A DNA stretch of 64,000 bases from Bradymonadia bacterium (GTDB taxonomy: Bacteria > Myxococcota_A > Bradymonadia > UBA7976 > UBA1532): NCBI GenBank assembly GCA_046290225.1, contig JBKAGE010000042.1:43299-107298 (forward strand), in the 5' to 3' direction. Each line of letters starts with the position of its first letter. Position 1 is the first letter of the stretch. Below the pieces are notes generated by a model. The model did not search any database and was not told where the DNA came from. It worked only from the letters and a program-made list of their open reading frames with translations. Shown here piece by piece: positions 48,298 to 51,016 of the stretch. The position numbers were made by a program, and so were the translations under genes.

Positions 48298-48670
48298 GGG
48301 CGCGCGACCATCTGCCTCGTTGCCACACTCTCACTTGTGGCCCGATATGGGCCAACTTTGTGGCGAAGACCTTTAAAAATCGCGGCATTGTGAAGGTAGA
48401 GCGGGCCAATGTCAACGACCTCGGCCACATGTAGGGGCGCCGCACGCCTTGAGAAACGCGGCAGGTGTGGAGTTGTTACCTGAATCTGGCCATCGAGGAT
48501 GAGGGCCAGGTTGTAGAAAGGGCGGGAGCGGCCCGACATAGGGATTTCGTTACCTTAGGACCGTTATATTTACAGTTGCTCTTACTGAGGCCAATCTCAG
48601 CAGTGGGCGCGAAGGGCCTTCGAGACCCATCTCACTCCTCCCTCGCCCACATGGCCGCTCCCGAAAGATA

Positions 48671-48711
48671 TGGGTGCCCCTGGAGGGAATCGAACCCTCG
48701 TCTCCACAGTG
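48671..48711 (-). pseudogene. 3' half of a tRNA-Glu-like gene
   Basis: CACTGTGGAGAC-GAGGG TTCGATT CCCTC-CAGGGGCA; matches the 3' halves of both tRNA-Glu genes; 5' half not found. Confidence 0.75.
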
Positions 48712-48916
48712 TTTTTCAGAGCCTGCCCTTCGGGCGCTTCTTCGCTCCTACGCCCTGTCGGGCTCCGTCGACTCCGAAGCGTCTGGCCACAGGCCAGACA
48801 GGCTCGCTCGCAGCATTTTTTCAGAGCCTGCCCTTCGGGCGCTTCTTCGCTCCTACGCCCTGTCGGGCTCCGTCGACTCCGAAGCGTCTGGCCACAGGCC
48901 AGACAGGCTCGCTCGC
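48712..48916. repeat. Two identical 100-bp tandem structured repeats (period 105)
   Basis: 48712-48811 equals 48817-48916; GAGCCTG...CAGGCTC closing stem with internal hairpins; degenerate copy at about 48950-49010. Confidence 0.9.
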
Positions 48917-49067
48917 TTACGCTCGCTGTTCTCTCTCAGCGTTGTTTGAGAGCCCACTCTTCACAGCCTCCGTCGTCTCTGAGGCATCTGGTTTCAGAGC
49001 AAACAAGCTTTCTCGTTTGTACTCGCTGCTCTCTCAGCATTTCTGGCTGGATCACTCCAGACCTCAA

Positions 49068-49143
49068 TGGATCCCCCGGCTGGATTCGAACCAGCATCTT
49101 CGCGTTCAGAGCGCGACATCCCCAACCGTTGAACGACAGGGGA
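49068..49143 (-). tRNA. tRNA-Gln(CTG), CCA encoded
   Basis: Cloverleaf; anticodon arm TCGCG-CTCTGAA-CGCGA; T arm GCTGG TTCGAAT CCAGC. Confidence 0.9.
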
Positions 49144-49155
49144 TCAGATGTAATT

Positions 49156-49233
49156 TGGCGTCCCTGGCGGGATTTGAACCCGCGCTTCCACAGTGAAAAT
49201 GTGGCGTCCTGAGCCTGACTAAACGACAGGGAC
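49156..49233 (-). tRNA. tRNA-Glu(TTC), CCA encoded
   Basis: Acceptor GTCCCTG/CAGGGAC; anticodon arm CCACA-TTTTCAC-TGTGG. Confidence 0.9.
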
Positions 49234-49271
49234 ACGAGCCGCTCTGTGAGCGGCGAATTTCTTTATTTTTG

Positions 49272-49343
49272 CGGCCCATACCGGAATCGAACCGGTCCAC
49301 AACCGATAGACAGTCGGTCAGCACCCCTTGCGCTCGATGAGCC
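49272..49343 (-). tRNA. tRNA-Asp(GTC), atypical, copy 2
   Basis: Acceptor GGCTCAT/ATGGGCC; anticodon arm ACCGA-CTGTCTA-TCGGT; C8 and U37 are non-canonical. Confidence 0.8.
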
Positions 49344-49353
49344 ATCATCTAAG

Positions 49354-49425
49354 ATCCCCCGGTAGGACTCGAACCTACATCACCGTGGTCAAAGCACGGG
49401 GTCCTGACCATTGAACGACAGGGGA
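49354..49425 (-). tRNA. tRNA-Gln(TTG)
   Basis: Anticodon arm CCGTG-CTTTGAC-CACGG; T arm GTAGG TTCGAGT CCTAC. Confidence 0.9.
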
Positions 49426-49499
49426 TCAACCACCCCAACCAGAGCCCACCTGCGACACGGCGCCGGGGAGCTCCGGAGGTTTCGGGAGTGGACCAAAAG

Positions 49500-49572
49500 T
49501 GCTCGGGGACGGACTCGAACCGCCGACGCGCTGATCTTCAATCAACCGCTCTACCAACTGAGCTACCCGAGC
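49500..49572 (-). tRNA. tRNA-Phe(GAA)
   Basis: 5' end GCTCGGGTAGCTCAGTTGGTAGAGC; anticodon arm GTTGA-TTGAAGA-TCAGC. Confidence 0.92.
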
Positions 49573-49647
49573 AAAGTCACCATCAACACTCGACCTCAAA
49601 ACGAGAGTGGCGCCCCCATCATGGGGTCGAGTGTCGATGTCTATATG

Positions 49648-49721
49648 CGTCCCTGGCGGGATTTGAACCCGCGTCTCCACACTGAGAACGTGGCATCCTT
49701 GGCCAGCTAGACGACAGGGAC
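49648..49721 (-). tRNA. tRNA-Glu(CTC)
   Basis: Acceptor GTCCCTG/CAGGGAC; anticodon arm CCACG-TTCTCAG-TGTGG. Confidence 0.9.
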
Positions 49722-49733
49722 AGTGTTTTTAGG

Positions 49734-49950
49734 GAGCCTGCCCTTCGGGCGCTTCTCCGCTCCTCCGGTTGGCATTCGCCACCCTCCGTCGGCTCCGAAG
49801 CGTCCGGCCACAGGCCGGACAGGCTCGCGGGCTGACGCCCGCTATTTTCTCTCGGGGTTTCTAGGAAAACCTGCCTTTAGGGTGCTCCTACACCCCTACA
49901 GCTTCGCCTTTGTCGACTCCGAAACATCTGGCTACAGGCCAAAAAGGCTC
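49734..49950. repeat. Two further diverged copies of the ~100-bp structured repeat
   Basis: 49734-49826 reads GAGCCTGCCCTTCGGGCGCTTC...CAGGCTC; more degenerate copy at about 49866-49950. Confidence 0.8.
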
Positions 49951-50131
49951 GCCCGCAGATCTCTCTCAACCTTTCTCAAAAACGCCCCCTTCAAGTACCT
50001 CTCCATCCGTATCCGCAAACCCCAGCCAGCAACCACGAAAGGCCGGGGGCCGCGGAGCTCCGGAGGTTTTGGGAGTGGGTGGCTGGCCGGCGAGGCGCCC
50101 GCTCCCAAAGCCGGAGGAGCGGAGCAAAAAG

Positions 50132-50203
50132 CGGCCCATACCGGAATCGAACCGGTCCGCAACCGATAGACAGTCGGTCAGCACCCCTTGCGCTCGATGA
50201 GCC
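50132..50203 (-). tRNA. tRNA-Asp(GTC), atypical, copy 1
   Basis: Differs from 49272-49343 by one base in the variable loop. Confidence 0.8.
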
Positions 50204-50374
50204 ATACAGCATTGCACATTAGATACACCCCGAGTGTATCGACACACGCCTTGGGTGAGTCGGCCTCATATCAAACCACTCATACCGGAGCGGCATCAGA
50301 TACACATCGGGTGTATACACACCTGTCGCACGTCAGGCATGGTCATACGCCAAAACTGGAAACGGAGAGTGCAG

Positions 50375-50417
50375 AAAGCAAAAACGCCCACCGCTCCAGG
50401 TTGTGGAGGGGTGGGCG
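50375..50417 (-). terminator. Intrinsic terminator (putative attenuator) upstream of the tRNA array
   Basis: CGCCCACCCCTCCA-CAACC-TGGAGCGGTGGGCG followed by TTTTTGCTTTC. Confidence 0.8.
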
Positions 50418-50444
50418 CCGGGCCTAACCGTAAAGAATCAACGG

Positions 50445-50543
50445 TTACGCGAGGTTCCCCCCCTCGATATCCTGCTCAAAGCGCTCTTGTTCCTGCTGGA
50501 ACAGGGCGCATTCGAGCACATCGGTATCGAAAAAGCAGAACAT
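50445..50543 (-). CDS. Putative leader peptide MFCFFDTDVLECALFQQEQERFEQDIEGGNLA
   Basis: GAGG RBS 5 nt before ATG; 17 of 32 codons are Phe/Asp/Glu/Gln; stop lies 27 nt before the terminator stem. Confidence 0.75.
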   Translation of the reverse strand: MFCFFDTDVLECALFQQEQERFEQDIEGGNLA

Positions 50544-50609
50544 GGTGGCCTCAAATCAATCGGGTGTTGGAAGGCGCTCAAGAAGTGATGAGCGCCGTTG
50601 ACGTGACAA

Positions 50610-50638
50610 TCAATACTGGTGACTGTTCAGCGTGTCAA
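50610..50638 (-). promoter_or_regulatory. Putative sigma70 promoter of the leader/tRNA operon
   Basis: Perfect -35 TTGACA, 17-nt spacer, weak -10 TATTGA; A-tract upstream. Confidence 0.55.
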
Positions 50639-51016
50639 CGCGAACAGCGTTTTTTTCTCAAAAAACACTCATCCCCCAGAAATTACGGCACTTTTAAGGG
50701 CACAGAACCTTGCTCTTGATCGAACACATGCCTCTCTCGGCCTGACCATGAGTCCTGCTCTCGAACACGCGCACGCCTCAAAGCGCTCTCTTTGCCACCA
50801 ATTGAAAACAACATTCATTTTCTTCTTGAGGTTCGCCCAGGGCTGGCGTTAGGGTTGTCCGCAGATGAGCTCACCACACTTCGGGCCATCCAGGGCATGG
50901 CGCTCATCCGCCGTGCTCGCACTGCTCCTTGCTTCTCGACGCGCTGGACAGGCGGGTTGGGGGTTGCCGTTCTCCCGTGGCGCCCCAACCCGCCTGCCCC
51001 TTTACCTCCTCAAGTT

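Follow-up and report, generated by a model that had tools for sequence, protein, structure and literature searches.

A leader open reading frame rich in Asp, Glu, Phe and Gln codons as the probable attenuator of a spare tRNA operon in a Bradymonadia bacterium

The DNA considered here is a stretch of 64,000 nucleotides (the window) from contig JBKAGE010000042.1 of a Bradymonadia bacterium (assembly GCA_046290225.1), whose genome, designated G000, is GC-rich and measures 8.6 Mb. On the minus strand of the window, seven tRNA genes for Asp, Glu, Phe and Gln stand behind a short leader open reading frame (ORF) that is rich in the codons of the same four amino acids, and this operon of spare tRNA genes is probably subject to codon-specific negative feedback through a ribosome-mediated transcription attenuator. 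Its parts, given in window positions, are as follows:

50610..50638, minus strand: candidate sigma-70-type promoter, with -35 TTGACA (50638-50633), 17 nt and -10 TATTGA (50615-50610), then a GC-poor discriminator
50549..50552, minus strand: ribosome-binding site GAGG, 5 nt upstream of the ATG; GAGG also precedes the start in the homologous locus of genome G023
50445..50543, minus strand: leader ORF of 32 aa (P0001), with 17/31 codons for Asp, Glu, Phe or Gln; its RNA folds as one long hairpin able to hide the G-rich block
50457..50465, minus strand: G-rich block, codons 27-29, predicted 5' strand of the antiterminator, whose partner, in G000 as in G023, is the C-rich 5' arm of the terminator
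50375..50418, minus strand: candidate intrinsic terminator, hairpin 50418-50384 followed by a T tract to 50375, -25.9 kcal/mol
50131..50203, minus strand: tRNA-Asp(GTC), atypical (C8, G9, odd D arm, U37), below the Rfam cut-off
49647..49721, minus strand: tRNA-Glu(CTC)
49499..49572, minus strand: tRNA-Phe(GAA)
49353..49425, minus strand: tRNA-Gln(TTG)
49271..49343, minus strand: second copy of tRNA-Asp(GTC), 99% identical to the first
49156..49233, minus strand: tRNA-Glu(TTC)
49068..49143, minus strand: tRNA-Gln(CTG)

The original prediction, which had been made from the letters of the sequence, named the promoter, the GAGG, the 32-aa ORF, the terminator and the seven tRNA genes in this order, and each of them was found again at its place on the minus strand.

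Regarding the codon content of the leader, 17 of the 31 codons after the start specify Asp, Glu, Phe or Gln, against a background of 0.20 in the long ORFs of the genome (binomial p 1.8e-5); none of 5000 dinucleotide shuffles reached 17 cognate codons, the two other frames hold one and two, and the cognate share of the leader is attained by a fraction of 0.00004 of the 28,455 short ATG ORFs of G000. The recount gave five Phe, three Asp, five Glu and four Gln codons, with both kinds of Glu codon (two GAA, three GAG) and both kinds of Gln codon (one CAA, three CAG) in use, as had been claimed, and the match between leader and array goes beyond chance. Codons for Trp, His, Lys and Tyr are absent from the leader. 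The layout is that of an attenuator: a short ORF with a ribosome-binding site lies between the promoter and the genes to be controlled, and its regulatory codons agree with the function of the operon, both at this locus and by covariation over modules and genomes. Downstream of the leader there are tRNA genes only, with no biosynthetic or synthetase protein genes.

The design is repeated in at least four modules of G000, each of which would sense its own amino-acid group. Besides the array of the window, three others are sorted by amino acid, namely Arg/Lys/Val/Ile (nine genes, running to the contig end), Leu/Ser/Tyr (ten genes) and Ala/Gly/Thr (seven genes), and a looser unit consists of Cys, hydrolase, Met and Pro genes in this order, the hydrolase standing among tRNA genes. 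Each array is preceded by a short ORF, in which cognate codons amount to 20/34 for Arg/Lys/Val/Ile, 20/34 for Leu/Ser/Tyr, 24/58 for Ala/Gly/Thr and 14/36 for Cys/Met/Pro, next to the 17/31 of the leader in the window. When these five leaders were compared with the five arrays, the true pairing was the best of the 120 permutations; for 11 narrow leader-array pairs from four genomes, 0 of 200,000 permutations fitted equally well, a result that is overstated because two of the pairs are homologs. The check proposed in the original prediction, that leader codons should follow the anticodons of the array, was accordingly positive within G000, and the other genomes gave the same answer.

As for these other genomes, 60 relatives and the 30 further genomes of the order were searched at the DNA level, which gave one true homolog, in G023, and one chance match, in G026. 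The G023 leader has the same length (32 codons), start, stop and GAGG, and is free of indels, while its flanks show gaps. Behind it, the array reads Asp, Glu (interrupted by inserted DNA), Arg(GCG), Arg(CCG), Phe, Gln and Glu, and the leader holds seven Arg codons versus one in G000, all of them CGC, CGT or CGG, together with two Gln codons versus four; six of the 12 amino-acid changes between the two leaders go to Arg, and there is one synonymous change. In G000, the Arg(GCG) and Arg(CCG) tRNAs belong to the array behind the Arg-rich leader. The genomic flanks of the G023 array differ from those in G000. In G416, a 17-gene array for 10 amino acids has a leader with 39/42 cognate codons (p 7e-8), and in G317 the Ser leader has 9/37. 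Finally, arrays of 36 and 20 genes that cover nearly all amino acids are each preceded by a mixed leader, 108 and 70 codons long respectively, and a terminator.

The predicted folds provide the switch, a terminator and an overlapping, mutually exclusive antiterminator that are set by the position of the ribosome, and in this modelled form they support the attenuator proposed in the original prediction. Leader plus terminator fold with z = -7.1 versus shuffles. At equilibrium, the terminator has a probability of 0.99 on naked RNA and with a ribosome at the stop codon, and of 0.27-0.74 with a ribosome at codons 7-16; it also drops in five of the seven other narrow leaders that have a terminator. 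When the RNA was cut just past the 5' arm of the terminator, the G-rich block near the end of the ORF sequestered this arm (~0.6-0.8) until the ribosome was ~8-10 codons from the stop, and the same capture is predicted in 10 out of 10 leaders. Cognate codons crowd ahead of this switch point, with 66/96 in the 12 codons before it versus 20/62 after it (Fisher p 9e-6), a crowding that is partly forced because the G block dictates its own codons. For an untranslated leader, in which a protector helix of the trp/his type would favour termination, the predictions point both ways. The G block is already 0.94 paired within the ORF hairpin (z -3.7 versus codon-order shuffles) at the stage when the terminator arm is still to be made, and the full RNA is terminated at equilibrium, but on truncated RNA the antiterminator is favoured by 9.3 kcal/mol. 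In G023, compared with G000, two base pairs of the terminator stem have both partners replaced, and complementarity between G block and arm is retained. A MAFFT alignment of nine 3' cassettes had 53% column identity, too loose for pair covariation or for a model.

In the proposed mechanism, the transcription start, leader translation, termination, induction, function of the tRNAs and natural trigger are inferred. RNA polymerase would start near 50603 and a ribosome would begin on the leader; with fast decoding of Asp, Glu, Phe and Gln codons, it would reach codon 25 or later and cover the G block at codons 27-29, leaving the terminator to form and transcription to end near 50380. If an aminoacyl-tRNA were scarce, cut or poorly modified, the ribosome would be held at or before about codon 24, the G block would capture the C-rich 5' terminator arm, and read-through would reach the seven tRNA genes; the outcome would be a negative feedback on the supply of tRNAs for the same four amino acids. 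The switch may resemble that of whiB7, with read-through by default and closure only once a ribosome has come to the end of the leader; deleting the start codon may then result in read-through and not in super-termination.

The genes under this putative control are redundant. ARAGORN called 96 tRNA genes in G000, all six anticodons of the array have further stand-alone or housekeeping-cluster copies, and for six of six anticodons the housekeeping anticodon loop differs from the array copy at position 32, 37 or 38. Five of the seven array tRNAs pass the Rfam tRNA cut-off and the two Asp genes fall below it; tRNA-Asp is atypical, yet its G023 counterpart shows 94% identity and compensated base changes on both strands of the acceptor and T stems, and so it is probably under selection. 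In being supernumerary, redundant in anticodons and patchy in distribution, the array resembles the so-called L-arrays; it is not one long array of broad coverage, having seven genes for four amino acids in a set that is split over separate loci. An Asp tRNA with U37, used as a marker, occurs in 4/113 genomes of the class and in 4/401 genomes of the phylum sample, and a pattern scan of the genome collection gave one locus, L057; three loci came from a metagenome scan, none with an accessory array (two lie in rRNA operon spacers).

Extra tRNA relieves only a shortage of functional tRNA, so that cleavage, failed modification or a surge in demand would be likelier purposes of the operon, and plain amino-acid starvation would presumably also open the switch. 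The altered anticodon loops of the array tRNAs fit nuclease evasion, an idea that comes from work on phage tRNAs. A wider reading, to which we give even weight for and against, is that nearly the whole code (17 amino acids so far) is split into standby tRNA operons, each regulated by a leader made of its own codons and stocked with loop-variant tRNAs; these would offer codon-resolved surveillance and replacement against tRNA-cleaving toxins, phage or host nucleases and failed modification, with the leader re-evolving as tRNA genes move between operons.

A number of points weigh against attenuation by matched leaders. The leaders were first chosen by eye, and the thresholds of a fixed rule (a short ORF, a U-tailed hairpin 8-60 nt past its stop and a switchable 5' arm) were set afterwards. 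Applied to the 13 tRNA clusters of G000, 12 of them testable, this rule called four of four large accessory arrays, each with a ribosome-binding site, and for the other eight made one call without such a site (a Ser pair) and seven times none. Among 24 testable clusters of other genomes it called five accessory arrays, and it made three calls without a ribosome-binding site at ordinary clusters there, hence four overall; it missed three leaders picked by eye, including the G023 homolog with its weak T tract. The G416 Asp/Glu array and three further clusters, all at contig edges, fell outside this test. Alone, the rule is unspecific, with 78 switch-like sites among the 1733 hairpins of the genome, five of which lie at most 800 nt before a tRNA gene. 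The leader in the window also contains 14 non-cognate codons, and six His codons occur in the Cys/Met/Pro leader, behind which no tRNA gene for His was found; neither this leader nor the two of G317 have a clear U-tailed terminator. Some matches are weak: 8/45 (p 0.07) for a Leu-only array of G023 whose leader has a Leu run, 4/28 (p 0.08) for its Pro-only array, and 4/12 (p 0.06) for the Glu/Asp pair of G317. Two long leaders stay terminated at equilibrium with hardly any drop, truncated naked RNA is antiterminated as well (0.69), and 17 of 300 codon-order shuffles sequestered the arm equally well, which makes this a modest control. With 12 non-synonymous changes to one synonymous, the comparison of the G000 and G023 leaders gives no sign of selection on the peptide. 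The 30 other genomes of the order yielded a single true homolog, and the cassette was present in only 6/137 phage clusters, none clearly matched, in a sample of 80 loci out of at least 115, many of them near-identical. As for RNA, the search of one run (0.05 word share) gave four contigs, three of which are tRNA-Phe pieces of other organisms; the sole match to the locus is one 269-nt contig of 94% identity and depth 2 that covers 50088-50356 and could be DNA.

Among the alternatives, it is unlikely that the same switch responds mainly to ribosome stalling or uncoupling in general (from antibiotics, hibernation or damage), similar to whiB7, where the codon bias only tunes the response and the arrays open together. 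The advantage of 9 kcal/mol that truncated naked RNA gives to the antiterminator is in its favour, as are the long mixed leaders ahead of the all-purpose arrays, one of which lies near what appears to be the end of an rtcB-like gene and the other before a second EF-Tu gene, and the fact that translation inhibitors induce the L-array of Anabaena (PMC8421152). Such a sensor needs neither five differently biased leaders nor a gain of Arg codons that tracks the Arg tRNAs, and early pairing of the G block within the ORF hairpin could keep RNA that is not translated locked in its terminating form. We find it very improbable that the arrays are horizontally acquired, decaying remnants, with attenuators that functioned in a donor such as a phage but no longer act in this host. 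Their patchy presence (the Asp-U37 marker in 4/113 genomes of the class), the different flanks in G023, the repeat insertions, the cut Glu half-gene, the split Glu gene of G023 and the lower GC (0.58 vs 0.63-0.64) speak for this reading; four to five intact modules at separate chromosomal sites, array promoters that match the host's own pattern, and paired substitutions in the stems of the terminator and of tRNA-Asp speak against it.

It is slightly more improbable again that the leader is a structured non-coding RNA, with the ORF and its Phe versus Glu/Gln content as by-products of a self-complementary hairpin and the tRNAs made by leaky read-through or from a downstream promoter. The ORF does form one long hairpin, with the z of -3.7 given above, and since UUC can pair with GAA, part of the leader composition might be structural; the 12:1 non-synonymous excess would suit this explanation, and the palindromes in the spacer before the first tRNA gene could be operator sites. 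However, in G023 eight of the 37 hairpin pairs are broken and none shows a compensating change, whereas the reading frame, its start and stop and the GAGG are retained; the other frames give one and two cognate codons, an equally good match is seen in leaders that form no strong hairpin (z -0.4 and -1.2), and the palindromes are not conserved. The cargo is followed by the codon content, not by the hairpin. Finally, we give almost no credence to the small peptide itself being the functional product, with a terminator that merely ends its gene: 19 of the 32 residues are identical between G000 and G023, but the peptide has no Pfam match, and the paralogous leaders share position, G block and terminator and no peptide sequence. 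Codon-specific attenuation of spare tRNA genes is the most likely reading.

The remaining features of the locus are the following:

50573..50596, minus strand: small 8-bp hairpin in the 5' untranslated leader, a gap in the G023 alignment and hence not conserved
50425..50447, minus strand: 7-bp hairpin beginning at the stop codon, stem retained and loop altered in G023; a possible polymerase pause site
50223..50316, no strand assigned: spacer with two ATACAC-N5-GTGTAT palindromes, not conserved in G023 and unique in the genome
49721..49983, no strand assigned: interspersed repeats like repetitive extragenic palindromic (REP) elements, with related copies on 10 contigs
48712..49043, no strand assigned: REP-like repeats after the array, two exact 100-nt copies
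48669..48711, minus strand: 3' half of a tRNA-Glu-like gene truncated by the repeat, 79% like the 3' part of Glu(CTC)

The REP-like repeat is palindromic, ~100 nt long and sits beside tRNA 3' ends in the window (20 BLAST rows, 10 contigs). The locus is flanked by chromosomal genes, glycosyltransferases on one side and imelysin plus a di-haem oxidoreductase on the other, and a prophage context was rejected on account of them. Other candidates that were discarded are the spacer palindromes as essential operators, not being conserved in G023; a 27-aa ORF that overlaps the leader in a different frame and was considered in its stead, which is without a ribosome-binding site and has 0/26 cognate codons; and a known RNA family, on the basis of Rfam.

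Regarding the promoter, its -35 and spacing are retained in G023 and the same pattern occurs upstream of seven of ten leaders. A consensus scanner flagged neither the promoter nor the terminator of the locus; the -10 has no T at position 6, which is also missing in most of the 11 promoter-like sites found at housekeeping tRNA genes of G000. In the 8 nt after the -10 there are 4-5 G/C at seven array promoters versus 6-7 at the 11 housekeeping ones, and, from what is known of stringent control, discriminators low in G/C would let the arrays escape the shut-off by ppGpp.

As for the make-up of the modules, the amino acids are grouped in G000 as Asp/Glu/Phe/Gln, Arg/Lys/Val/Ile, Leu/Ser/Tyr (long-arm tRNAs), Ala/Gly/Thr and Cys/Met/Pro, and differently in G023, as Asp/Glu/Arg/Phe/Gln, Leu and Pro. 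The hydrolase gene inside the Cys-Met-Pro unit is a nucleoside hydrolase (L034:4539-5798; G000:C42, upstream of the window), and the Leu/Ser/Tyr array has an 86-nt long-arm tRNA called Thr(TGT), with an apparently 9-nt anticodon loop (L032:3833-3918; G000:C37), that may be Tyr-like or non-canonical. Accessory arrays carry tRNA-Arg(GCG) (L031:480-555; L002:889-964; L073; L058), for which inosine editing would not be required, alongside the housekeeping Arg(ACG); in L204 and L206, Arg(GCG) is located in an ordinary Ser cluster, and a pattern for Arg(GCG) matched in four other genomes of 400, at genes that resemble housekeeping ones. An Asn and His tRNA pair (L035:3500-3999; G000:C44) stands behind a sigma-54-like motif, upstream of which a 12-codon ORF has two His codons and one Asn codon; this pair may supply tRNAs missing from the attenuated set. 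Another unit (L036:3633-4659; G000:C34) combines three tRNA-like RNAs bearing a 30-45-nt insert with two Pro tRNAs, preceded by the same sigma-54-like motif, TGGCAC, and followed by a TROVE-domain gene (ORF L036:4959-6767); it is presumably a Y RNA/Rsr-type RNA-repair operon, and similar units are present in L077 and L211.

In G023, the Glu(CTC) gene is split in its D arm by an insert of ~210 nt with a short flanking duplication (L002:1027-1317), and tandem 12-nt repeats occupy the spacer from the terminator to the Pro tRNAs (L052:1600-1860); as a rule, the array spacers are rich in repeats and not conserved. Of the two all-purpose arrays (L058:2596-9476 and L059:1208-4200), one is followed by a second EF-Tu gene and the other is preceded by what we take to be the end of rtcB.

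Control of tRNA genes in bacteria is generally regarded as acting in bulk, through growth rate or ppGpp, or through a repressor in the case of stress arrays. The feature described here is real, and its probable ribosome-mediated attenuation would be directed at tRNA genes, in several modules, on a cellular chromosome and with an evolutionary gain of codons that tracks a gain of tRNA genes. If true, it would add a new layer of control, in which the cell gauges the decoding speed of each codon group and restocks just those tRNAs; it would give a testable purpose to supernumerary tRNA arrays, a long-standing puzzle, let the tRNAs whose loss an organism anticipates be predicted from its sequence, and provide natural multi-codon sensors usable as reporters of tRNA damage. 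The original prediction knew of no described case of leader-peptide feedback on tRNA genes, and likewise no account of leader-peptide attenuation on tRNA genes was found in a literature search whose coverage was incomplete, being poor for subscription papers and supplements (e.g., the L-array datasets of PMC8421152).

Among known systems, multivalent attenuators are represented by thr and ilv. The attenuators of pheST and of synthetase operons (PMC1183508, PMC1262725) combine a short ORF that carries regulatory codons with a choice between antiterminator and terminator, and are read through on slow codons. Like the trp, his and pheA, the pheST and the Streptomyces trpS and leuS attenuators, the locus in the window has an ORF with regulatory codons and predicted exclusive hairpins, and would be read through when the codons are slow. 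It differs from the amino-acid and synthetase attenuators in that its output consists of tRNA genes, the sensed molecule itself; it also has four amino acids and both isoacceptors in one leader, with the codons dispersed rather than in one run, and several paralogous modules divide the code.

L-arrays are supernumerary tRNA genes of patchy distribution, regarded as a second set that can be induced, and that of the Anabaena trn operon is controlled by promoter repeats and the repressor TrcR (PMC8421152, PMC10272220); the main text of PMC8421152 has no match for "attenuat" or "leader". At the present locus, a repeat finder (seed 9) detected no repeats of the TrcR type across the promoter, no search for a repressor having been made, and, unlike the L-arrays, the set is split into short operons sorted by amino acid.

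T-box riboswitches are alike in using transcription antitermination to report tRNA charging (PMC1262725), and differ in that sensing at the present locus needs a translated ORF; no Rfam T-box match was found at the locus, which is not assigned to that class.

A likeness in geometry is predicted with the upstream ORF (uORF) of whiB7/wblC in Actinobacteria, where the terminator forms only if the uORF is well translated, the composition sets the starvation that is sensed and loss of the start codon raises read-through (10.1101/2023.06.02.543512); the WblC regulon includes six tRNA genes (PMC7157823). The leader in the window shares with it a predicted default-open geometry. However, whiB7 controls a transcription factor and through it tRNA genes indirectly, whereas here the attenuator would sit on the tRNA transcript itself, with codons that match its cargo.

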